Below are positions 37,866 to 62,518 of a DNA stretch of 64,000 bases, piece by piece. A program made the position numbers and the translations under genes. How positions within the stretch are numbered: position 1 is the stretch's first letter; the number at the start of each line of letters is the position of its first letter. Location of the stretch: positions 434,001-498,000 of the forward strand of contig NC_086110.1 of assembly GCF_963921235.1 (NCBI RefSeq). Direction: 5' to 3'. This DNA is from Mobula hypostoma (Eukaryota). Below the pieces are notes generated by a model. That model ran no database searches and was not told the DNA's origin. It saw only the letters and a list, made by a program, of their open reading frames with translations.

Positions 37866-40800
37866 TTCTCTCTAGCTGTCAGTACCTCCAGTTGAACTTT
37901 GTCTTTTTGTGTGTTTTACCCCTAGCTGTCACTGTGTGATTTTGCATTGCCATGTGCTCTTGTTTGTTCTCATGCCCCATGTGCTCCTGTCCCCACCCCT
38001 GCTCTACTCCGGCCCCTGTATTACTGAGTACTCCACCTCTCACCTGTTTCTCATTATTACCTGTTTTGATGCCACTTGTGACTCATTGTGCTCCACCTAT
38101 CATCTGCCTCTCTGTTTATTGCTCAATGTATTTTAGTCCTGTGTTTTCAATAGTTTGTTGCCAGATTGTGCCAGTGGAAATTCCTGAGACTTTCCATCAT
38201 TCGTATCTCTGCTCTGTCTGTCTGAATATCGACTCTGCCTGTTTCTCGATCCTGGTGTGGATTTCGCTGGTTGTTTTAATCTCTGCCTGAAGTTTGACGC
38301 CGACTTTATTTGCACCGCAGAATTGTACTCTGTCCTTGTGAATATCGACTCTGCCTGTTTCCCGATTCTGGTTTTTGGATTTCTCTGTCTGTTTTGATTT
38401 CTGTCTGAACTTTGACGCTGACTTTGTTTGCACCTCGGGATTTATTACTCAATTAATATCACCGTGTGTACAGCACTGGGTCTGCGATTGGATTCCTGAT
38501 CCAGTGCCCCGACGGTACAATCTGGCCAGAAAAGATCCAGCAGACGCCGGTCGTCTGAGAGTTGCCCTGGAACAGCAGGGAGTGATGCTGGCGAGATACC
38601 AGAACCAGCTGGGCTCCATGTTCAGGACAGTAGAGTCGCTTTCTGCGAATATAGCCGATCTTTTGGCCCAGACTCATTCACTCCAGCTGTTTCAGAGCGC
38701 CCGTCGACGTTCTGCGGCTGCATCTTCCGCTCCGCCCTCCGCATTCTCGCTGACTCCTCCCGTCCTAGAACCCTGTCTGCCTCCTCCAGAAAACTACTCA
38801 GGTGAACTCTGCCGCTCTTTTCTTTCCCGGTGCATCCTCATCTTTGAATTACAACCAACAGCCCTTCTGACTGATCGAGCCAAGGTGGCTTACGTCATCA
38901 CCCAACTGTCCGGTCGGGTGAGAGAATGGGGAACAGCTGTCTGGGAGGAAGACTCAACTTTCTGCAGTAGTTTTCAGTTATTTTCTGAAGAGTAGAGACA
39001 AGTGTTTGATCGCTCCAAACATGGGACAGAGGCTGCCCGTGAAATGCTGCACATGCACCAGGCGCGCAGATCTGTGTCAGATTACGCCATAGAGTTCCAG
39101 ACCCCAGGCACCTCCAGCGGATTAAACACGGCGGCAAAGTACAACACCTTCCTGAATGGCCTCACCGAAGACATCAAAGATGAAGTGGTTACCCAGGACC
39201 GTCCTGCCACCTTTGAAGCCCTGGTGGATTTGGCCATCCGCATTGATGCTGGCCTTCAGCAGCGCCGCAGTGGGAGGGGTTCCAAAGCTTCCCTAGGGGC
39301 ATTAGGTGAGCTCCAAGTTCCTCATCAGTCTACAGTGCCGTGCCGTTTGCCCCCATCCTGTTCCAGAGTCCGAAGCTATGAAGGTTAACTGTACCCGGCT
39401 GACGCCGATTGAAAGACAAAGGAGAATCAGCACCCATTCCAGTCTGTACTGCGGACAAACAGGCCACTTCATCTTCACCTGACCAATAAAAGCCAAGCGC
39501 TCACCAGTAGGACGAGGAGTACTGATGAACGTGATCCTTGTCCGGACCTCCTGGACGCCACTCACTCTCATACCTGCTTATCGGCAGTGGGGCGTCCAAC
39601 GCCGAGCGGTCTCCGTCTTAGTCGATTCTGGTGCAGAGGGACGTTTTATCGATTCTTGCTTGGCTGCCCAATAGCGATTCCCCACGTCTGCTATCCAGTC
39701 ACCGTTGGTGGCCAACGTCTGGAACGGTCAGAGACTGGCTAACGTCACCCATGTCATGACCTTGGTGAGTCTCAGTTTATCCGGCAACCGTTATCAACCG
39801 TTAACCCTTTATGTTATTGGCTCTCCTCAAGCTCCCATTGTCCGGGGCCATCCCTGGTTAGTGAAACAGAACCCCCACATTGACTGGCTCAGTGACATGA
39901 TTGTAGGCTGGAGCCCATTCTGTCACTTCCACTGCCTCCACCAAGGCAAGATTCCCCTGAGGAATTTCCGTTCCTTGGCGCCATCCCTCCTGAGTACATT
40001 GTCGTCCATATGACTGCGCCATTGACCTCTTGCCTGGCACATCTCTGCCTGTATTCCCTGTTCGTACCTGAAACAGAAGCCGCGAGTAAGTACATTCATG
40101 AGTCTTTGGCTACAGGCATCATCCGGCCGTCTTCCTCCCCTGCTGATGCCGTTTTTTTTTATTCGTCGAAAAGAAGGACTGCTCCTTACGTCCGTGCATT
40201 GATTACCGGGGACTGAATGAAGTCATTGTTAAGAACTGTTACCATCTTCTGCTCACGACCTCGGCATTTGAACTACTGCAAGGAGCCTCAGTTTTCGCCA
40301 AGCTTGATCTCCGTAACGCCTACCATCTTATCCGCATCCGCAAAGGGGACGAGTGGAAGACTGACTTCAACGCCACCTGAAACCATTACGAGTGACTGGT
40401 TAAGACATTCGGTCTCACCAGTGCCCCCAGCGTCGTCCAAGGTCTGGTAAATGATGTTCTCAGGGACATGCTGAACCAATTTGCTTTTTTGTATCTCGAT
40501 GATACTTTGATTTTCTCTAAGTGACTTGCTGAACACACAGGGCACGTCCGCAATGTTCTCCAGCACCTTCTGGAGAACCAGCTCTTTGTGAAGGCTGAGA
40601 AATGTGAGTTTCATCACAATACCGTTTTCCTCCTGGGGTATGTAATTTCAGGCGGTTCCATTCAGATGGACCAACAGAAGGTCAAGACGGTGGTCGAATG
40701 GTCCCAACCCTTGACGCATTGGGAGTCGCAACGCTTCTTGGGCTTTTCTAACATCTATCGCCGCTTCATCAGAAATGACAGTACACTGGCTGCACCAGTC

Positions 40801-41830
40801 ACTGCTCTTGCCTGATCGGCTGTCAGATCCTCCTGCAGGTCCCCTGCTGCTGAAAAAGCATTCCCTGACCTGAAGGAAAGCGTCACCTCTGTCACCACCC
40901 TAATTCAACCTGACACCGACCGGCAGTTCATTGTGGAGGTGGATGTGTCTGACATTGCCGTAGGAGCTGTTCTCTCTCGGCGCTCGGCCAAGGATAAGAA
41001 GGTACATCCCTGCGCCGCCTTCTCTTACTGCCTCACTCCCACGTAGCGGAATTACGGTGTCAAAACCGGGAGCTTCTGGCTGTGAAACTAACTCTGGAGG
41101 AGTGCAGGTATTGGCCGGACGGAGCCAAAGTGTCATTCTTGGTCCGGACTGATCACAAGAATCTGGAATATATTCGTACCGCCAAGCGTCTCAACTCCAG
41201 TCAAGTTCATTGTTCCCTATTTTTCTCAATATTCAATTTTACTCTGTCCTTCCATCCCGGTTCCAAGAATGGAAAACCTGATGCCCGTTCCAGAAGATTT
41301 CCTTCCTCTGAGACCCCTGAGGTCCCCGATGTCATCCTCCCTTCTCACTGTATCGTGGGTGCAGCACAATGGGACATTGAATTCATTGTGCGAGCTGCTC
41401 ACAGAGCGATGCAGCCCCTTGTCAATGCCCCACTAACCGTGTTTATGTTCCCAGCTCTGTCCACTCACAGGCACTGCAGTGGGGTCATTCTTCCCGGTTA
41501 TCCTGTCACCCTGGAACCAAGCGTACTCAGGCCTTCATCAGTCGGCGGTTCTGGTGGCCCTCCATGGGAGATAACATCCGCAACTTCGTCTCAGCCTGCT
41601 CGGTCTGTGCTCAAGGCAAGAACTCTAACTGGTCACCTGCTGGTCCGTTACAACCCCTGTCGTCCCCGAGAGACGCTCGTCCCACATTGTCTTGGATTTT
41701 GTCACCAGTCTGCCCCCATCAGATGGTAACACCACCATTCTCACAGTAGTTGATCATTTCTCCAAGTCTGTACACTTCATTCATTTATCTAAACTCCCCT
41801 CGGCCAAAGAAACAGCCAAACTACTAGTAC

Positions 41831-44370
41831 CACACATCAAAGTTGCTGGTGAACGCAGCAGGCCAAGCAGCATCTATAGGAAAGGGCGCAGTCGACGTTT
41901 CAGGCCGAGACCCTTCGTCAGGACTAACTGAAGGAAGAGTGAGTAAGGGATTTGAAAGCTGGAGGGGGAGTGGGAGATGCAAAATGATAGGAGAAGACAG
42001 GAGGGGCAGGGATGGAGCCGAGAGCTGGACAGGTGATTGGCAAAAGGGGATACGAGAGGATCATGGGACAGGAGGTCCGGGAAGAAAGACAAGGAGGGGG
42101 GTTGACCCAGAGGATGGGCAAGAGGTATATTCAGAGGGACAGAGGGAGAAAAAGGAGTGAGAGAAAGAATGTGTGCATAAAAATGAGTAACAGATGTGGT
42201 ACGAGGGAGAGGTGGGGCCTTAGCGGAAGTTAGAGAAGTCGATGTTCATGCCATCAGGTTGGAGGCTACCCAGACGGAATATAAGGTGTTGTTCGTCCAA
42301 CCTGAGTGTGGCTTCATCCTTACAGTAGAGGAGGCCGTGGATAGACATGTCAGAATGGGAATGGGATGTGGAATTAAAATGTGTGGCCACAAACCTGCCT
42401 GTCCTGGCCGACTTATTGTCTCAGCTTGCTCCTGCCCCACCGAACTCGTTTCTGCATACCTTGACACTGTTTTATCACCCCTTGTTGAATCCCTTCCGAC
42501 CTATGTTCGTGACACTTCTCACGCTCTTAAACTTTTCGATGATTTTAAGTTCCCTGGCCCCCACCGCTTTATTTTCACCATGGATGTCCAGTCCTTATAT
42601 ACTTCCACCCCCCATCAGGAAGGTCTCAAAGCTCTACGCTTCTTTTTGGATTCCAGACCTAATCAGTTCCCCTCTACCACCACTCTGCTCCGTCTAGCGG
42701 AATTAGTCCTTACTCTTAATAATTTCTCCTTTTGCTCCTCCCATTTCCTCCAAACTAAAGGTGTAGCTATGGACACCCGTATGGGTCCTAGCTATGCCTG
42801 CCTTTTTGTTGGGTTTTTGGAACAATCTATGTTCCGTGCCTATTCTGGTATCTGTCCCCCACTTTTCCTTCGCTACATCGACGACTGCATTGGCGCTGCT
42901 TCCTGCACGCATGCAGAACTCGTTGACTTTATTAACTTTGCCTCCAACTTTCACCCTGTCCTCAAGTTTATCTGGTCCATTTCTGACACCTCCCTCCCCT
43001 TTCTAGGTCTTTCTGTCTCTGTCTCTGGAGACAGCTTATCCACTGATGTCTACTATAAGCCTACTGACTCTCACAGCTATCTGGACTATTCCTCTTCTCA
43101 CCCTGTCTCTTGCAAAAACGCCATCCCCTTCTCGCAATTCCTCCGTCTCCGCCGCATCTGCTCTCAGGATGAGGCTTTTCATTCTAGGACGAGGGAGATG
43201 TCTTCATTTTTTAAAGAAAGGGGCCTCCCTTCCTCCACTATCAACTCTGCTCTTAAACGCATCTCCCCCATTTCACGTACATCTGCTCTCACTGCATCCT
43301 CCCACCACCTCCTAGGAATAGGGTTCCCCTGGTCCTCACCTACCACCCCACCAGACTCCGGCTCCAACATATTGTTCTCCGTAACTTCCGCCACCTCCAA
43401 CGGGATCCCACCACTAAGCACATCTTTCCCTCCCCCCCTCTCTCTGCATTCCACACGGATCGCTCCCTACACAACTCCCTTGTCCATTCGTCCCCCCCAT
43501 TGATCTCCCTCCTGGCACTTATCCGTGTAAGCGGAACAAGTGCTACACATGCCCTTACACTTCCTCCCTTACCACCATTTAGGGCCCCAAATAGTCCTTC
43601 CAGGTGAGGCATCACTTCACCTGTGAGTCGATTGGGGTGATATACTGCGTCCGGTGCTCCCGATGTGGCCTTTTATATATTGGTGAGACCCGACGCAGAC
43701 TGGGAGACTGCTTTGCTGAACATCTATGCTCTGTCCGCAAGAGAAAGCAGGATCTCCCAGTGGCCACACATTTTAATTCCACATCCCATTCCCATTCTGA
43801 CATGTCTATCCACGGCCTCCTCTACTGTAATGATGAAGCCACACTCAGGTTGGAGGAACAACACCTTATATTCCGTCTGGGTAGCCTCCAACCTGATGGC
43901 ATGAACATCGACTTCTCTAACTTCCGCTAAGGCCCCACCTTCCCCTCGTACCCCATCTGTTACTCATTTTTATGCACACATTCTTTCTCTCACTCCTTTT
44001 TCTCCCTCTGTCCCTCTGAATATACCTCTTGCCCATCCTCTGGGTCACCCCCCCTCCTTGTCTTTCTTCCCGGACCTCCTGTCCCATGATCCTCTCGTAT
44101 CCCCTTTTGCCTATCACCTGTCCAGCTCTCGGCTCCATCCCTGCCCCTCCTGTCTTCTCCTATCATTTTGCATCTCCCCCTCCCCCTCCCACTTTCAAAT
44201 CCCTTACTCACTCTTCCTTCAGTTAGTCCTGACGAAGGGTCTCGGCCTGAAACGTCGACTGCGCCTCTTCCTATAGATGCTGCTTGGCCTGCTGCGTTCA
44301 CCAGCAACTTTGATATGTGTTGCTTGAATTTCCAGCATCTGCAGAATTCCTGTTGTTTACGTTTTTAAAT
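41831..44370 (+). mobile_element. Penelope-like insertion with inverted terminal arm, inside the chromovirus integrase
   Basis: Inverted arm 41831-~42390, then forward RT and GIY-YIG to the stop at 43930 and the terminal region. 9-bp TSD TACTAGTAC at 41822-41830 and 44371-44379; removing the insert restores [23 protein letters not shown]. Confidence 0.93.
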
Positions 44371-44941
44371 TACTAGTACTGCATGTCTTTAAATTGCATG
44401 GTTTACCTGTAGATGTTGTGTCAGACGGGGGCTCTCAATTCACATACAACTTCTGAAGAGCATTCTGTAATCTGGGCGCCTCTGAGTCTGTTTTCAGGAT
44501 TCCACCCACAGACCAATGGCCAGACCGAGCAGGCCAACCAACAGCTAGAGACCGTATTGCGGTGTCTGGTCTCCCAGAACCCCCGTGCGTGGTGTCAGCA
44601 GCCATATATTCTCATCCGATACCCGTCTGTCCCACTTCCAGTGGGGCCTTGGCTACCAACCTCCACTGTTTCCTGCCCAGGAGGAGGAGGCTGGTGTTCC
44701 ATCTGCAGAGGCATTCATCCTCGGTTGTCAGCGGACGTGGAGGCGCACTCGCTCTGCCCTTCTCCGTGCCTCTGCTAGGATCAAGCTTCAAGCTGACCAG
44801 CATCGCTCCAAGCCCCACGTTATCGCCAGGGACAGCGTGTGCGGCTTTCATACTGAGACCTGCCCCTCAAGGTGGATTCCTCCAAATTTGACCCCCTGCT
44901 TCATCGGCCACTTTCCCATTGCGAAAGTCATCAGCCCTGCT

Positions 44942-47900
44942 GCCACCCGTCTCAAGCTCCCCTCCAATCTCCGCCGCCCGTCTCAAGCTCCCCTCCAATC
45001 TCCGCCGCCCGTCTCAAGCTCCCCTCCAATCTGCACCGCCCGTCTCAAGCTCCCCTCCACTCTCCGCCGCCCGTCTCAAACTCCACTCCACTCTCCACCG
45101 CCCGTCTCAAGCTCACCTCCAATCTCCGCCGCCCGTCTCAAACTCCACTCCACTCTTCACCGCCCGTCTCAGGCTCCCCTCCAATCTCCGCCGCCCGTCT
45201 CAAACTCCACTCCACTCTCCACCGCCCGACTCAAGCTCCACTCCACTCTGCACCGCCCGTCTCAAGCTCCCCTCCACTCTCCGCCGCCCGTCTCAAGCTC
45301 CCCTCCAATCTGCACCGCCCGTCTCAAGCTCACCTCCACTCTCCGCCGCCCGTCTCAAGCTCCAATCCACTCTCCACCGCCCGTCTCAAACTCCACTCCA
45401 ATCTCCGCCGCCCGTCTCAAGCTCCCCTCCAATCTGCACCGCCCGTCTCAAGCTCACCTCCACTCTCCACCGCCCGTCTCAAGCTCCCCTCCACTCTCCG
45501 CCGCCCGTCTCAAGCTCCCCTCCACTCTCCGCCGCCCGTCTCAAACTCCCCTCCAATCTCCACCGCCCGTCTCAAGCTACCCTCCACTCTCCACCGCCCG
45601 TCTCAAGCTCCAATCCACTCTCCACCGCCCGTCTCAAGCTCCACTCCAATCTCCGCCGCCCGTCTCAAACTCCCCTCCACTCTCCACCGCCCGTCTCAAG
45701 CTCCAATCCACTCTCCACCGCCCGTCTCAAGCTCCCCTCCAATCTCCACCGCCCGTCTCAAACTCCCCTCCACTCTCCACCGCCCGTCTCAAGCTCCCCT
45801 CCAATCTGCACCGCCCGTCTCAAGCTCACCTCCACTCTCCACCGCCCGTCTCAAGCTCCACTCCAATCTCCGCCGCCCGTCTCAAACTCCCCTCCACTCT
45901 CCACCGCCCGTCTCAAGCTCCCCTCCAATCTCCGCCGCCCGTCTCAAACTCCCCTCCACTCTCCGCCGCCCGTCTCAAACTCCCCTCCACTCTCCGCCGC
46001 CCGTCTCAAACTCCCCTCCACTCTCCACCGCCCGTCTCAAGCTCCCCTCCAATCTCCACCGCCCGTCTCAAGCTCCCCTCCACTCTCCGCCGCCCGTCTC
46101 AAGCTCCCCTCCACTCTCCGCCGCCCGTCTCAAACTCCCCTCCACTCTCCGCCGCCCGTCTCAAACTCCCCTCCACTCTCCACCGCCCGTCTCAAGCTCC
46201 CCTCCACTCTCCGCCGCCCGTCTCAAGCTCCCCTCCAATCTCCGCCGCCCGTCTCAAGCTCCCCTCCACTCTCCGCCGCCCGTCTCAAGCTCCCCTCCAC
46301 TCTCCGCCGCCCGTCTCAAACTCCACTCCACTCTCCGCCGCCCGTCTCAAACTCCCCTCCAATCTCCACCCCCGTCTCAAGCTCCCCTCCACTCTCCGCC
46401 GCCCGTCTCAAGCTCCCCTCCAATCTCCGCCGCCCGTCTCAAACTCCCTCCATCTCCGCCGCCCGTCTCAAACTCCCCTCCAATCTCCACCGCCCGTCTC
46501 AAGCTCCCCTCCACTCTCCGCCGCCCGTCTCAACCCGTCTCCACCGCCGTTCAAGCTCCCCTCCAACTCCACTCCCCGCCCGTCTCACTCTCCACCGCCC
46601 GTCTCAAGCTCCCCTCCACTCTCCACCGCCCGTCTCAAGCTCCCCTCCACTCTCCGCCGCCCGTCTCAAGCTCCCCTCCACTCTCCGCCGCCCGTCTCAA
46701 GCTCCCCTCCACTCTCCGCCGCCCGTCTCAAGCTCCCCTCCACTCTCCGCCGCCCGTCTCAAGCTCCCCTCCACTCTCCGCCGCCCGTCTCAAGCTCCCC
46801 TCCACTCTCCGCCGCCCGTCTCAAGCTCCCCTCCAATCTCCGCCGCCCGTCTCAAGCTCCCCTCCAATCTCCGCCGCCCGTCTCAAGCTCCCCTCCACTC
46901 TCCGCCGCCCGTCTCAAGCTCCCCTCCACTCTCCGCCGCCCGTCTCAAACTCCCCTCCACTCTCCGCCGCCCGTCTCAAACTCCCCTCCAATCTCCGCCG
47001 CCCGTCTCAAGCTCCCCTCCACTCTCCGCCGCCCGTCTCAAGCTCCCCTCCACTCTCCGCCGCCCGTCTCAAACTCCCCTCCACTCTCCGCCGCCCGTCT
47101 CAAACTCCCCTCCAATCTCCGCCGCCCGTCTCAAGCTCCCCTCCACTCTCCGCCGCCCGTCTCAAGCTCCCCTCCACTCTCCGCCGCCCGTCTCAAGCTC
47201 CCCTCCACTCTCCGCCGCCCGTCTCAAGCTCCCCTCCAATCTCCGCCGCCCGTCTCAAGCTCCCCTCCACTCTCCGCCGCCCGTCTCAAGCTCCCCTCCA
47301 CTCTCCGCCGCCCGTCTCAAGCTCCCCTCCACTCTCCGCCGCCCGTCTCAAGCTCCCCTCCACTCTCCGCCGCCCGTCTCAAGCTCCCCTCCACTCTCCG
47401 CCGCCCGTCTCAAACTCCACTCCACTCTGCACCGCCCGTCTCAAGCTCCACTCCACTCTCCACCGCCCGTCTCAAGCTCCCCTCCACTCTCCGCCGCCCG
47501 TCTCAAACTCCCCTCCAATCTCCGCCGCCCGTCTCAAACTCCCCTCCAATCTCCACCGCCCGTCTCAAGCTCCCCTCCACTCTCCGCCGCCCGTCTCAAA
47601 CTCCACTCCACTCTCCGCCGCCCGTCTCAAACTCCACTCCACTCTCCACCGCCCGTCTCAAGCTCCCCTCCAATCTCTGCCGCCCGTCTCAAGCTCACCT
47701 CCAATCTCCGCCGCCCGTCTCAAGCTACCCTCCACTCTCCACCGCCCGTCTCAAGCTCACCTCCACTCTCCACCGCCCGTCTCAAACTCCCCTCCACTCT
47801 CCGCCGCCCGTCTCAAGCTACCCTCCACTCTCCACCGCCCGTCTCAAGCTACCCTCCACTCTCCACCGCCCGTCTCAAGCTCACCTCCAATCTCCGCCGC

Positions 47901-50643
47901 CCGTCTCAAACTCCACTCCACTCTTCACCGCCCGTCTCAAACTCCCCTCCAATCTCCGCCGCCCGTCTCAAGCTCCCCTCCACTCTTCACCGCCCGTCTC
48001 AAGCTCCACTCCACTCTCCGCCGCCCGTCTCAAGCTCCCTCCAATCTCCGCCGCCCGTCTCAAGCTCACCTCCAATCTCTACCGCCCGTCTCAAACTCCC
48101 CTCCAATCTCCACCGCCCGTCTCAAGCTCCCCTCCAATCTCCACCGCCCGTCTCAAGCTCCACTCCAATCTCCACCGCCCAGCTCCCCTCCAATCTCCAC
48201 CGCCCGTCTCAAGCTCCCTCCAATCTCCACCCGTCTCAGCTCCTCCAATCTCCACCGCCCGTCTCAAGCTCCCCTCCACTCTCCACCGCCCGTCTCAAGC
48301 TCCCCTCCAATCTCCACCGCCCGTCTCAAGCTCCCCTCCAATCTCCACCGCCCGTCTCAAGCTCCCCTCCAATCTCCACCGCCCGTCTCAAGCTCCCCTC
48401 CACTCTCCGCCGCCCGTCTCAAGCTCCCCTCCACTCTCCGCCGCCCGTCTCAAGCTCCCCTCCAATCTCCGCCGCCCGTCTCAAGCTCACCTCCAATCTC
48501 TACCGCCCGTCTCAAACTCCCCTCCACTCTCCACCGCCCGTCTCAAGCTCCCCTCCACTCTCCGCCGCCCGTCTCAAGCTCCCCTCCAATCTCCACCGCC
48601 CGTCTCAAGCTCCACTCCAATCTCCACCGCCCGTCTCAAGCTCCCCTCCACTCTCCGCCGCCCGTCTCAAGCTCACCTCCACTCTCCACCGCCCGTCTCA
48701 AGCTCCCCTCCACTCTCCGCCGCCCGTCTCAAGCTCCCCTCCAATCTCCGCCGCCCGTCTCAAGCTCCCCTCCACTCTCCGCCGCCCGTCTCAAGCTCCC
48801 CTCCACTCTCCACCGCCCGTCTCAAGCTCCCCTCCACTCTCCGCCGCCCGTCTCAAGCTCCCCTCCACTCTCCGCCGCCCGTCTCAAACTCCCCTCCAAT
48901 CTCCGCCGCCCGTCTCAAGCTCCCCTCCACTCTCCGCCGCCCGTCTCAAACTCCCCTCCAATCTCCGCCGCCCGTCTCAAGCTCCCCTCCAATCTCCGCC
49001 GCCCGTCTCAAGCTCCCCTCCACTCTCCACCGCCCGTCTCAAGCTCCCCTCCACTCTCCACCGCCCGTCTCAATCTCCCCTCCACTCTCCGCCGCCCGTC
49101 TCAAACTCCCCTCCACTCTCCGCCGCCCGTCTCAAGCTCCCCTCCACTCTCCGCCGCCCGTCTCAAGCTCCCCTCCACTCTCCGCCGCCCGTCTCAAGCT
49201 CCCCTCCACTCTCCGCCGCCCGTCTCAAGCTCCCCTCCACTCTCCGCCGCCCGTCTCAAACTCCCCTCCAATCTCCGCCGCCCGTCTCAAACTCCCCTCC
49301 ACTCTCCGCCGCCCGTCTCAAGCTCCCCTCCACTCTCCGCCGCCCGTCTCAAGCTCCCCTCCACTCTCCGCCGCCCGTCTCAAGCTCCCCTCCACTCTCC
49401 GCCGCCCGTCTCAAGCTCCCCTCCACTCTCCACCGCCCGTCTCAAGCTCCCCTCCACTCTCCACCGCCCGTCTCAAGCTCCCCTCCACTCTCCGCCGCCC
49501 GTCTCAAGCTCCCCTCCACTCTCCGCCGCCCGTCTCAAGCTCCCCTCCAATCTCTGCCGCCCGTCTCAAGCTCCCCTCCAATCTCCGCCGCCCGTCTCAA
49601 GCTCCCCTCCAATCTCCGCCGCCCGTCTCAAGCTCCAATCCACTCTCCACCGCCCGTCTCAAGCTCCCCTCCAATCTCCGCCGCCCGTCTCAAGCTACCC
49701 TCCACTCTCCACCGCCCGTCTCAAGCTCCCCTCCACTCTCCACCGCCCGTCTCAAGCTCCCCTCCACTCTCCGCCGCCCGTCTCAAGCTCCCCTCCAATC
49801 TCCGCCGCCCGTCTCAAGCTACCCTCCAATCTCCGCCGCCCGTCTCAAGCTCCCCTCCAATCTCCACCGCCCGTCTCAAGCTCCCCTCCACTCTCCCCCG
49901 CCCGTCTCAAACTCCCCTCCACTCTCCGCCGCCCGTCTCAAGCTCCACTCCACTCTCCACCGCCCGTCTCAAGCTCCCCTCCACTCTCCGCCGCCCGTCT
50001 CAAGCTCCAATCCACTCTCCACCGCCCGTCTCAAACTCCCCTCCACTCTCCGCCGCCCGTCTCAAGCTCCCCTCCACTCTCCGCCGCCCGTCTCAAGCTC
50101 CCCTCCACTCTCCGCCGCCCGTCTCAAGCTCCCCTCCACTCTCCGCCGCCCGTCTCAAGCTCCCCTCCAATCTCCGCCGCCCGTCTCAAGCTCCCCTCCA
50201 CTCTCCGCCGCCCGTCTCAAGCTCCCCTCCACTCTCCGCCGCCCGTCTCAAGCTCCCCTCCACTCTCCGCCGCCCGTCTCAAGCTCCCCTCCAATCTCCG
50301 CCGCCCGTCTCAAGTTCCCCTCCAATCTCCGCCGCCCGTCTCAAGCTCCCCTCCTCTCTCCACCGCCCGTCTCAAGCTCCCCTCCACTCTCCGCCGCCCG
50401 TCTCAAGCTCCACTCCAATCTCCGCCGCCCGTCTCAAGCTCCCCTCCAATCTCCGCCGCCCGTCTCAAGCTCCCCTCCACTCTCCGCCGCCCGTCTCAAG
50501 CTCCCCTCCAATCTCCGCCGCCCGTCTCAAGTTCCCCTCCACTCTCCGCCGCCCGTCTCAAGTTCCCCTCCACTCTCCGCCGCCCGTCTCAAGCTCCCCT
50601 CCACTCTCCACCGCCCGTCTCAAGCTCCACTCCACTCTCCGCC
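44942..50643 (+). repeat. 31-bp GC-rich minisatellite array, about 184 units (consensus GCCCGTCTCAAGCTCCCCTCCACTCTCCGCC)
   Basis: Directly visible; the 31-aa periodicity of the three overlapping ORFs equals 3 x 31 nt. Confidence 0.97.
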
Positions 50644-51668
50644 ACATTCATCCCGCGTTCTATGTGTCCCGCATGAAGACTTTCATGAGCCACCCCTGTG
50701 GCCTGTCTCTAAACCCTCCCCTCCCCCACGGATCATCGATGGGTCAGAGGCCTTCACCATGCATCGACTGCTGGATGTTCATCGCCGGGGCCGTGGCCTG
50801 TAGTACCTTGTGGACTAGGAGGGCTACGGTCTTGAGGAGAGGTGCTGGATGCCCGCCCGTAACATCCTAGACCCCTCTCTCAACGGGGACTGACATCGCC
50901 AGCAACCAGCTCTACCTGCCGTGACGCCAGAAGCCGCCTGTGGAGGGGGTGGGGGTGGGGGGTGGTTATTGTCAGTACCTCCAGTTGAACTTTGATTTTT
51001 GCGTGTTTTTCGCCTTGCCTGTGGTTTTGTATTGCCATGTGCTCTGGTTTGTTATAATTCACCAAGTGCTCCTGTCCCCACTCTTTCTCTACCCTGGGCA
51101 AGTAATACCCTGTATTACTGAATACTCCGCCTCTCACCTGTTTCTCATTATTACCTGTTTTGCTGACACTTCTGTCTCATTGTGCTCCACCTCTCATCTA
51201 CCTCTGTTTATTGCTCAGTGTATATTTGTACTGTATTTTCACCTGCATGTTGCCAGATTGTGCCTGTGAATTTTTCTAAGTCTTTCCAGTATGCGTATCT
51301 CTACACCGTCTGTCTGAATATCGACACTGTCTGTTGCTTGATTCTGGTTTGGATTTCTGTGGCTGTTTTAATTTTTGCCGGAACTTTGACGCCGATTTTA
51401 TTAACACCTCGGGTTTTGTTACTCAAATACTATCACTGGGTGCACAGTACTGGGTTTGCGATTGGATCACTGCTCCAGCGCCCTGACACTAACTGCCTAC
51501 TACCAATCAGCCAATGTTTTAACCATCTCAGTAACTTCAGGTCCAGAATCTGGTTCATTATCACCGGCATGTGACGTGAAATTTGTTACCTTAGTAGTAG
51601 CCCTCAAAGCAATACATAATACAGATTAAAAAAAAAACAAATAAAATAATAATAACACATAAACAAGT

Positions 51669-53570
51669 AACTCACATCAAAGATGCTGGTGAACGCAGCA
51701 GGCCAGGCAGCATCTCTAGGAAGAGGTACAGTCGCGTTTCAGGCCAAGACGCTTTGTCAGTACTAACTGAAGGAAGACTTAGTAAGAGATTTGAAAGTGG
51801 GAGGGGACGGGGAGATCCAAAATGATAGGAGAAGACCGGAGGGGGAGGGATGGAGTCAAGAGCTGGACAGGCGATTGGCAAAAGGGATACATGAGGCTCA
51901 TGGTACATGAGGCCTAGGGAGAAGGAAAAGGTGGGGGAGGGGACCCAAACGATGGGCAAGGGGTATAGTCAGAGACACAGAGGGAGAAAAGGGAGAGTGG
52001 GAGAAAGAATGTGTGTATATTGTGACGAGAATACACATAAAATTAAGATGTTTGCTGGCCTGGGTTAGCATCAGTGACATCAGCAAGTGGTCTGCCACCT
52101 GCCCTCAGGAGAAGGAGAGATAAGGAACAATGGAGCAGCGTCTGGAGATGTGTAATGAAGGGACGGGGGAGAGAGAGCTGTCTGGAGCGGCTCCCCCCTT
52201 TGAACCTTGAACTGTTTGAAGTGATGGACAGGCGATGCCCCAGCAGGGGGATAAAAAGGGACAGGTTCGCTAAGGCAGGACACACGCCACCCGAGGTAAC
52301 GAGACCCTGGAAGCGGTACGCTTCTCACGAGTCGGTGGGAGGTATCAGACAACGGCCAGGGTGGAAAGGTACGATCAGCGGGAACCCGGTGTGTGTCCGC
52401 CCTTGCCTGGGTGCCGGGTTCACTGCAGAGGATCGACCGCATCTGGAGGAGGGGTCACAGTCGGTGACCTCAGGTGACATCACCAAGGACCCGCCCAAAA
52501 GCTGCTTGTGAGCAATATCGCCAGTCTGTGAGTGAAGCCGTTCTGAATGATCAGTTGTTCCTGTTCTATCTCTCTCTTCCCCCACGTTGTCCATCGCCAT
52601 GGCAACGAATACTGCGAACTGAACTACTAAACTGGACTGAACTTTGAGTCACTTTGAAATTTGGTCATTTACACCTAGACAACGATAGAGCTTGATTGAT
52701 GCTGTTATCTTAATTCTGTGCACATGTGTGTTTATCATCGCTGAACTGTTGCATTTATTGTCCTTTCGATTACTGTGTTCCTTATTTTTTTTAATAAAAC
52801 TTTCTTAGTTCTAGTACTCCAGACTCCGACTGAGTGATCCATTTCTGCTGGTTTGGCAACCCAGTTACGGGGTACGTATCAATATAAATAAATAATGGAT
52901 GGGGTCCGAGGGGTAGGTGGGGCATTAGCGAAAGTCAGAGAAGTCAACGTTCATGCCATCAGGTTGGAGGCTACCCAGACGGAATATAAAGTGTTGTTCC
53001 TCCAACCTGAGTGTGGTTTCATCTTTACAGTAGAGGAGGCCGTGGATAGACATATCAGAATGAGAATGGGACGTGGAATTAAAATGTGTGGCCACTGGGA
53101 GATCCTGCTTTCTCTGGCGGACAGAGCGTAGGTGTTCAGCAAAACGATCTCCCAGTCTGCGTCGTGTCTCGCCAATATATAGAAGGCCACATCGGGCGCA
53201 CCGGACGCAGTATAACACCCCAGCCGACTCACAGGTGAAGTGTCGCCTCACCTGGAAGGACTGTCTGGGGCCCTGAATGGTGGTAAGGGAGGAAGTGTAA
53301 GGGCATGTGTAGCACTTGTTCATCTTACACGGATAAGTACCAGGAGGAAACTCAGTGGGGAGGAATGGGGAGGAGGGCGGGGGGAACGAATGGACAAGGG
53401 AGTCGCGTAGGGAGCGATCCCTGAGGAAAGCAGAGAGAGGGGGGACGGAAAGATGTGCTTAGTGGTGGGATCCCGTTGGAGGTGGCGGAAGTTACGGAGA
53501 ATAATATGTTGGACGTGGAGACTGGTGGGGTGGTAGGTGTGAACCAGGGGAACCCTACTCCTAGTGGGAC
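51669..53570 (-). mobile_element. Penelope-like 3' fragment (GIY-YIG and terminal region), split by a solo LTR
   Basis: Minus-strand ORF 52925-53323 GVLYCVRCARCGLLYIGETRRRL; terminal sequence shared with the other copies. Confidence 0.88.
52021..52881 (+). mobile_element. Solo LTR with 4-bp TSD ATAT
   Basis: TGTGACG...GGGGTACGTATCA termini resemble the LTR at 16916-17666; ATAT at 52017-52020 and 52882-52885. Confidence 0.85.
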
Positions 53571-55183: not shown

Positions 55184-56600
55184 GAACACACATCAAAGTT
55201 GCTGGTGAACGCAGCAGGCCAGGCAGCATCTCTAGGAAGAGGTACAGTTGACGTTTCAGGCCGAGACCCTTCGTCAGGACTAACTGAAGGAAGAGTGAGT
55301 AAGACATTTGAAAGTTGGAGGGGGAGGGGGAGATCTAAAATGATAGGAGAAGACAGGAGGGGGAGAGATGGAGCCAAGAGCTGGACAGGTGATAGGCAAA
55401 AGGGATACGAGAGGATCATGGGACCGGAGGTCCGGGAAGAAAGACAAAGGGAGGGGGGAGCCCAGAGGATGGGCAAGGGGTATATTCAGAGGGGCAGAGG
55501 GAGAAAAAGGAGAGTGAGAGAAAGAATGTGTGTATAAAAATAAATAACAGATGGGGTATGAGGGAGAGGTGGGGCATTAGCGGACATTAGAGAAGTCGAT
55601 GTTCATGCCATCAGGTTGGAGGCATCCTCTCGTATCCCTTTTGCCAAACACCTGTCCAGCTCTTGGCTCCATCCCTCCCCCTCCTACTAAAATTATCTAA
55701 AATGTTAAAAAATGAAACCATAGTCAAAGTAATAACGCAAACAACAGGAATTCTGCAGATGCTGGAAATTCAAGCAACATACATCAAAGTTGCTGGTGAA
55801 CGCAGCAGGCCAAGCAGCATCTGTAGGAAGAGGTGCAGTCGACGTTTCAGGCCGAGACCCTTCGTCAGGACTAACTGAAGGAAGAGTGAGTAAGGGATTT
55901 GAAAGTTGGAGGGGGAGGGGGAGATCCAAAATGATAGGAGAAGACAGGAGGGGGATGGATAGAGCCAAGAGCTGGACAGGTGATAGGCAGAAGGGGATAC
56001 GAGAGGATCATGGGACAGGAGGTCCGGGAAGAAAGACAACGGGGGGGGGGGGGGACCCAGAGAATGGGCAAGAGGTATATTCAGAGGGACAGAGGGAGAA
56101 AAAGGAGAGTGAGAGAAAGAATGTGTGCATTAAAATGAGTAACAGATGGGGAGGTGGGGCCTTAGCGGAAGTTAAGTAACTCGTACCCCATCTGTTATTC
56201 ATTTTTATGCACACATTCTTTCTCTCACTCTTCTGTTTCTCCCTCTGTCCCTCTGAATATACCTCTTGCCCATCCTTTGGGTCCCGCCCCCCCCTTGTCT
56301 TTCTTCCGCAACCACCTGTCCCATGATCCTCTCGTATCCCCTTTTGCCAATCACCTGTCCAGCTCTTGGCTATATCCCTCCCCCTCCTGTCTTCTCCTAT
56401 CATTTTGGATCTCCCCCTCCCCCTCCAACTTTCAAATCCCTTACTCACTCTTCCTTCAGTTAGTCCTGACGAAGGGTCTCGGCCTGAAACGTCGACTGCA
56501 CCTCACCTACAGATGCTGCTTGGCCTGCTGCGTTCACCAGCAACTTTGATGTGTGTTGCTTGAATTTCCAGCATCTGCAGAATTCCTGTTGTTTATATTT
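55184..56600. mobile_element. Cluster of Penelope-like terminal arms in alternating orientations, plus a short captured LINE piece
   Basis: Arms at ~55184-55620 (-), 55621-55683 (+), 55732-56175 (-) and 56176-56600 (+); 55684-55731 matches 61758-61810. Confidence 0.85.
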
Positions 56601-61810: not shown

Positions 61811-62518
61811 CGCAAACAACAGGAATTTTGCAGATGCTGGAAATTCAAGCAACATACATCAAAGTTGCTGGTGAACGCAGCAGGCCAAGCAGCATCTATA
61901 GGAAGAGGTGCAGTCGACGTTTCAGGCCGAGACCCTTCGTCAGGACTAACTGAAGGAAGAGTGAGTAAGGGATTTGAAAGTGGGAGGGGGAGGGGGAGAT
62001 CCAAAATGATAGGAGAAGACAGGAGGGGGAGGGATGGAGCCAAGAGCTGGACAGGTGATTGGCAAAAGGGATACGAGAGGATGCCTCCAACCTGATGGCA
62101 TGAACATCGACTTTTCTAACGTCCGCTAATGCCCCACCTCTCCCTCATACCCCATCTGTTATTTATTTTTATACACACATTCTTTCTCTCACTCTCCTTT
62201 TTCTCCCTCTGCCCCTCTGAATATACCCCTTGCCCATCCTCTGGGTTCCCCCCTCCCCTTGTCTTTCTTCCCGGACCTCCGGTCCCATGATCCTCTCGTA
62301 TCCCTTTTGCCTATCACCTGTCCAGCTCTTGGCTCCATCCCTCCCCCTCCTGTCATCTCCTATCATTTTAGATCTCCCCCTCCCCCTCCAACTTTCAAAT
62401 GTCTTACTCACTCTTCCTTCAGTTAGTCGTGACGAAGGGTCTCGGCCTGAAACGTCGACTGTACCTCTTCCTAGAGATGCTGCCTGGCCTGCTGCGTTCA
62501 CCAACAACTTTGATGTAT
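61811..62518. mobile_element. Short fold-back Penelope-derived insert with 13-bp TSD
   Basis: Minus arm 61811-~62082 and plus arm ~62083-62518, both element 3' ends facing outward; GTCAAAGTAATAA at 61798-61810 and 62519-62531. Confidence 0.9.

Follow-up and report, generated by a model that had tools for sequence, protein, structure and literature searches.

A GC-rich minisatellite inside a Mobula chromovirus, probably expanded in place from a 31-bp piece of the SH3 domain

Introduction

A tandem array of 5.7 kb interrupts the pol region of a retrotransposon in the genome of Mobula hypostoma, within the 64-kb stretch of DNA analysed here (434–498 kb of an 80.6-Mb contig; hereafter the window), and raises the question of how and when a mobile element gives birth to such an array. 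For human, the portion of Ahmed and Liang (2012; PMC3389668) used here counts 7,276 transposon-derived minisatellites, 1,597 of them from ERVs, and 300 cases with flanking direct repeats of 5–20 bp. In the Haber-Louis model, as outlined in the consulted sections of PMC3389668 and PMC6947457, a motif lying between direct repeats of 5–10 bp is duplicated and then amplified by slippage, conversion or unequal crossing-over. The ancestors of minisatellites are usually lost; at this locus many unexpanded copies of the family survive, and a single genome shows the breakpoint, a point change beside it and the turnover that followed. We conclude that the array is very probably a single-locus, GC-rich minisatellite derived from a piece of an SH3 domain, which would have arisen after insertion by a slip between 5-bp repeats and then passed through long turnover.

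Results

The array sits in a full-length but decayed element copy (37877–51488; Table 1). With stops read as X, its internal region matches the Pfam families Retrotrans_gag, Ty3_capsid, Asp_protease_2, RVT_1, RT_RNaseH and Integrase_H2C2, giving the Ty3/Gypsy order of gag, protease, reverse transcriptase, RNase H and integrase. The 3′ LTR runs TG...CA and the 5′ LTR TG...CG, with target-site copies CTAGC and CTAAC outside them, and the two LTRs align along their length except for the 118-bp duplication, differing at 15.9% of 509 aligned bases (K2P 0.179). The left flank of the array, 84–90% identical to sister copies, has an SH3_Tf2-1 match under the curated cut-off (E 1.4e-4), and the right flank a Chromo match (PF00385; E 0.02), also under its cut-off; in all four sisters scanned, SH3_Tf2-1 is followed by Chromo, both over cut-off. 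On these predicted domains, the host is a Ty3/Gypsy chromovirus. Its integrase is interrupted by a 2.5-kb nested non-LTR element that gave no Pfam match at E 0.01, and which we take to be Penelope-like from its YIDD and GIY-YIG-type motifs. The surroundings of the host copy, read from 36.5 to 63.9 kb of the window, are mostly mobile-element debris.

Table 1 Features of the host element and its array (positions in the window).
Feature	Position	Strand	Basis
5′ LTR carrying a 118-bp duplication inside it; target-site copy CTAGC (37872–37876) just ahead	37877–38514	+	LTR alignment
Gag, protease, reverse transcriptase, RNase H and N-terminus of integrase, all decayed, with numerous stops and frameshifts	38530–41830	+	Pfam
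Nested non-LTR element in integrase; 5′ part inverted; 9-bp duplication TACTAGTAC on both sides	41831–44370	.	Sequence
Rest of integrase core and first half of SH3 domain (left flank)	44371–44941	+	Pfam, sisters
Left copy of 5-bp direct repeat GCCAC	44942–44946	+	Fifth base T in 88/91 sister pattern matches
Minisatellite, about 184 × 31 bp, ending in right GCCAC (50641–50645)	44947–50645	+	TRF, anchor split
End of SH3 domain, proline-rich linker, decayed chromodomain (right flank)	50646–50940	+	Chromo match
Purine-rich tract ahead of 3′ LTR	50942–50965	+	Sequence
3′ LTR (TG...CA), followed by target-site copy CTAAC (4/5 match)	50970–51488	+	LTR alignment

TRF reports a period of 31 with 184.1 copies and 92% matches at 44942–50643 (score 5625, far above chance), and its further periods of 62, 93 and 124 are multiples of the 31-bp unit. 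Counted with the right-hand GCCAC, the array extends over 44942–50645; it is C-rich on the + strand, and there is no N anywhere in the window. Splitting at an 8-base anchor gave 183 unit anchors; 174 of the units measure 31 bp exactly and comprise 34 types, while the other eight anchor intervals bear indels and are confined to two short stretches (46342–46598 and 48025–48258) that may represent real decay or read errors. The 31-bp, roughly 184-fold array described in an earlier, sequence-only reading of this DNA is thereby borne out, and its head-to-tail unit falls within the 10–100 bp size range of minisatellites. Long open frames cross the array because the unit has no stop codons, and we rejected them as genes.

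The left flank enters the array as ...GHFPIAKVISPAATRLKLPSNLRR and the last unit exits as ...LRHIHPAFYVSRMK, in agreement with the flank translations given previously; the frames of entry and exit are one base out of step. The Pfam domain SH3_Tf2-1 contains the unit, at about profile positions 39–49 of 64 (read from the match in a sister copy, L061), and the former description of the unit as part of an integrase linker is therefore wrong. A microhomology of GCC had also been proposed at the unit bounds. A short direct repeat is indeed present, with a length of 5 bp (GCCRC) instead of three: GCCAC stands at both edges of the array, inner unit junctions read GCCGC or ACCGC, and the edge-type A is found in 0 of 174 inner units.

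A search with the right flank found at least 298 candidate copies of the family, and among the best 40 of the 298, which were scored, the top sister reached 87%. Our sister set holds 61 loci, one of them a duplicate, leaving 60 distinct copies out of those candidates. All 60 have at most one unit, with small indels inside it in two, and the commonest array unit is identical over all 31 bases to the single-copy segment of 3 out of 51 sisters. A two-unit tandem pattern matched the genome 156 times, 154 of them inside the array and two in unrelated sequence; it demands two exact 10-mers, so that decayed dimers or strongly decayed arrays could escape it, and at this genome-wide stringency no second locus of the tandem unit was found. 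Since these 60 sisters have at most one unit and the tandem pattern, two unrelated sites aside, is limited to the array, the expansion was local and very probably followed insertion. This upholds the proposal of a local origin from a single-copy piece of chromovirus pol and disfavours the alternative timing shortly before insertion, as no sister has even two units; the genome search likewise found no independent satellite of the 31-bp unit, which the same reading had named as contrary evidence. The term satellite does not fit. Satellite families form very long or multi-locus arrays independent of their parent, whereas here one array of 5.7 kb, without spread, lies inside its parent, with a unit that still sits in the element and has its single-copy homologue there, as in transposon-derived minisatellites. 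A looser C-rich pattern was discarded as evidence: among 100 of its 223 matches listed, most were unrelated low-complexity arrays, and controls gave 33 and 61.

The sisters also indicate how the first duplication may have come about. In them the 4-bp motif GCCG, which CpG decay has often altered, is repeated at a distance of 31 bp; the next base is T after the left copy and C after the right one. Across the 91 matches to genome-wide patterns, the fifth base of the left repeat is T in 88 copies and C in three, including the host copy, and all inner junctions of the array have C at this base. Starting from a family that carries the 31-bp piece once, a T>C change would have lengthened the repeat from 4 to 5 bp, and slippage or misaligned repair between the 5-bp repeats would have produced the first dimer; the T>C change could instead have come after the first duplication. 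The GCCAC edges correspond to the direct repeats of 5–10 bp that the Haber-Louis model places at both array ends. Direct repeats of 5 bp at 20–60 bp spacing number 42 per kb in a sister pol stretch, and are thus so common by chance that the repeat accounts for the breakpoint, not for the expansion. Furthermore L061, one of the two other C copies and no nearer to the host copy than other sisters, contains the commonest array unit once, between GCCGC and GCCGC. It has the same unit and the same 5-bp repeat, yet is unexpanded; sequence alone is therefore insufficient.

The locus lies 0.48 Mb from the contig end, with other minisatellites around it. Sampled stretches at the contig start, up to 50 kb, consist of a 25-bp satellite, and no telomere repeat was found in them. 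Of the stretches sampled at 70–590 kb, 7 of 17 contain arrays of period 10–100 (one microsatellite-like), versus 2 of 19 in the interior; the bases in arrays are equal (10.6 kb distal, 10.4 kb interior) because one interior stretch is entirely satellite. Human minisatellites cluster terminally, according to the consulted part of PMC2599865. Location near this minisatellite-rich contig end might have favoured expansion, a weakly supported step that is consistent with terminal clustering rather than proved by it.

A bolder reading, which we regard as unlikely, is that the array is a recombination-driven, hypermutable minisatellite that has left a one-sided mutation scar. Non-CpG differences from the family majority amount to 3.5–6.6% in five segments left of the array and 4.2–5.3% in sisters, versus 9.7% and 11.8% in two segments on the right, about twice the usual value; over the 850 bp on the 3′ side, non-CpG substitutions are approximately twice as frequent as on the 5′ side or in sisters, and transversion-rich. 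Among the assigned LTR changes, 42–48 fall on the 3′ copy and 25–27 on the 5′ copy (p 0.014–0.07; p 0.12–0.22 without the duplicated part). CpG decay in the flanks is 25% in the host copy, which shares the lowest value, the median of the 59 sisters being 53%, and it is low through the entire host copy, even 3–4 kb from the array. Both the 3′ excess and the low CpG decay may be regional effects or chance. Two other sources of the 3′ excess were tried and rejected: a second subfamily as donor found no support (the best of 40 scored LTR matches reached 83%, with few differences shared), and the changes run mostly from G/C to A/T, against GC-biased conversion. If the hypermutable reading were true, some 60 or more paralogues would serve as controls in a natural experiment at this locus, in which chromosomal position and not sequence decides the birth of a minisatellite, and in which a long array mutates its own flanks in a slowly evolving vertebrate. 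The locus would gain weight if a one-sided substitution excess turned out to be general for long arrays.

The units themselves record what followed the first duplication. Their mean divergence is 6.2%, with 18 of the 31 columns invariant and private changes at only 5 of 5394 bases. Common variants are found in all four pairwise combinations and are weakly clustered among neighbouring units (permutation p 0.017); no higher-order repeat was detected, the longest repeated block of four units equalling that in shuffles. This pattern, the interspersed variant repeats with exchange between units of hypervariable VNTRs, fits birth-and-death turnover, in which unit gain, loss and exchange would have multiplied a small number of variants and removed most of those that newly arose, likely over a long time by unequal exchange or gene conversion, while the outermost array bases, beyond the reach of exchange, decayed. 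Both edge CpGs are decayed, while all 174 inner units keep the CpG at the corresponding site, a difference that points to the time elapsed since the birth of the array. At the mutation rate of the flanks, the mean common ancestor of the units would date to about 0.4 of the insertion age, as an upper bound.

If a captured origin event is taken to mean that the array was born recently or in a single 184-fold burst, it is at odds with these variants. Simulating one burst with passive decay to the same diversity yielded 69–108 types of unit with no fewer than 29 variable columns, compared with 34 and 13 seen; few private changes and shuffled shared variants thus reject one burst followed by decay. 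A newborn satellite whose variants stem from a raised mutation rate within the array is improbable as well. The in-array rate could exceed that of the flanks, making the age estimate an upper bound, and two of the three CpG sites are free of C>T and G>A decay across the 174 units, against 57–65% non-CG in 51 sisters; however, neighbouring arrays likewise retain most CpGs, the edge CpGs of this one are decayed, and sample S1 has junction words together with pieces at single-copy depth about 98% like the left flank, which may be an orthologue in a relative. C>A makes up 5 of the 16 distinct changes in the array, but we dropped the idea of a spectrum peculiar to it, such changes being frequent in the flanks too (7 of 45).

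Could the tandem have been made in a donor element or at reverse transcription, and inserted ready-made? Retrotransposition has been proposed as a starter of tandem repeats (in the part of PMC3389668 seen), and the pristine commonest unit suits an early first duplication. Against this, two units occur in 0 of 60 sisters and at no other genome site, and divergence among the array units is far lower than between the two LTRs, making the bulk of the array younger than the insertion. We consider a ready-made insertion highly improbable; a dimer may have formed at insertion itself, with the bulk of the array added later.

We also looked for the array in sequencing reads. Words spanning the tandem junction reach summed depths of 6915 and 8530 in contigs of runs X1 and X2, both from one sample, compared with 77 and 24 for two further organisms in whose runs the family is present; the X1 and X2 contigs have a loose end identical to an inner junction variant. 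That sample has 0.31 of the sampled words, with pieces about 98% like the flank (runs with small shares were left out), and may be a relative or the source sample itself, and would then not count as independent. The array, or its length, is exceedingly unlikely to be an assembly artefact: there are two indel-rich stretches inside it, and the check in reads covered words of the tandem junction, with no record across the whole array, but the 34 unit types are built from recurring, regionally clustered variants and the junction depth in X1 and X2 far exceeds that in the other organisms.

No function of the array is indicated. The junction between units forms a CCGCCC box, which we take to be Sp1-type, and such boxes number 181 in the array and 12 in the rest of the window; the box also lies inside a 13-base run without common variants (P 0.017 in a single test picked post hoc; 0.20 using all variable sites). 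That the array was retained for a function, for instance as an unmethylated island of GC boxes, has next to no likelihood, because arrays without the box keep CpG too, CpG decay is low several kilobases away from the array, and the region is the mobile-element debris described above. Protection of CpG by the boxes was rejected on the same box-less neighbouring arrays. A G-quadruplex driver was set aside as borderline (G4Hunter mean 1.2, and no canonical set of four G3 tracts joined by short loops), and no hairpin was found in the array.

Discussion

The process is of a known kind: the locus is a clear but ordinary example of a transposon-derived, single-locus minisatellite. Such minisatellites with flanking repeats are documented by the thousand in the sections of PMC3389668 used here, which makes this one less remarkable than it was first rated. 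As in those human cases, a piece of a transposon expanded in place at one locus. The human arrays described there mostly have two or three units, whereas the Mobula array has about 184; its unit moreover comes from chromovirus pol coding sequence in a non-mammalian vertebrate, with 60 unexpanded paralogues as controls. The literature searched, supplements and subscription journals aside, held no paper that treats the locus or describes arrays of this type from sharks and rays. The value of the locus is that of a tidy teaching case and a usable marker.

The edges fit the Haber-Louis model as presented in the consulted parts of PMC3389668 and PMC6947457, with a repeat that just reaches the lower limit of 5 bp and that a rare point change would have made; L061 adds an unexpanded copy in the identical state. 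Tandem repeats derived from LTR retrotransposons are also described in the parts seen of PMC3648361, for the Gypsy-derived maize arrays CRM1TR and CRM4TR, the variation of CRM1TR being ascribed to gene conversion, and of PMC6947457, for the LTR-born mouse Ms6-hm. Those arrays come from LTR or UTR sequence, and the CRM monomers are far longer, while the Mobula unit is 31 bp of integrase coding sequence.

With human MS32, MS205 and CEB1, as far as the consulted part of PMC2599865 describes them, the array has in common a GC-rich, strand-asymmetric unit, interspersed variant repeats and a place near a chromosome-scale end. For the human loci, germline mutation rate, polarity and a flanking hotspot have been shown. 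A look for a comparable hotspot or polarity found the 3′ flank more diverged, yet with changes that do not favour G and C.

Reading frames and substitutions in the host copy

All three forward-strand reading frames are open across the array (window 44549-50870), each for about 2000 codons, because the 31-bp unit contains no stop codon. CpG decay in the host copy is 25%, compared with a sister median of 53% (window 41000-51488), and its CpG retention exceeds that of nearly all sister copies of the family; the low decay extends to 3-4 kb away from the array. Non-CpG substitutions, many of them transversions, run at about twice the usual level in the 3' flank of the array (window 50646-51488), and the excess is confined to that flank.

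The two copies of the tandem duplication in the 5' LTR match at 84%, implying that this duplication is old. The target duplication flanking the nested non-LTR element contains a palindrome.

Features of the host copy, its surroundings and other minisatellites
Feature	Location	Remarks
Tandem duplication, 118 bp	window 38212-38434	5' LTR only, absent from 3' LTR
Nested element	window 41831-44370	5' part inverted; 9-bp target duplication
Pieces related to nested element	window ~51670-53560, 55190-56590, 61820-62510	
LTR-like piece, 800 bp	window ~52030-52840	within one of these pieces
GC-rich minisatellites	L068, L073, L075, L080	units of 38, 36, 53 and 42 bp
Distinct 31-bp C-rich minisatellite	G000:C21:33492615-33494204; G000:C50:74387499-74387600	

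Satellites elsewhere on the contig and in the genome

The window's contig starts in a 25-bp satellite (sampled stretches L064-L066, G000:C55:1-50000) and its far end is a 41-bp satellite (L103); no telomere repeats were found in the stretches sampled at either end. Long GC-rich minisatellites occupy four further sampled stretches of this contig, at most 400 kb from the array locus. Elsewhere in the genome (G000), a distinct C-rich minisatellite, also of 31 bp and unlike the array's unit, is present at at least two loci, on different contigs (C21 and C50).
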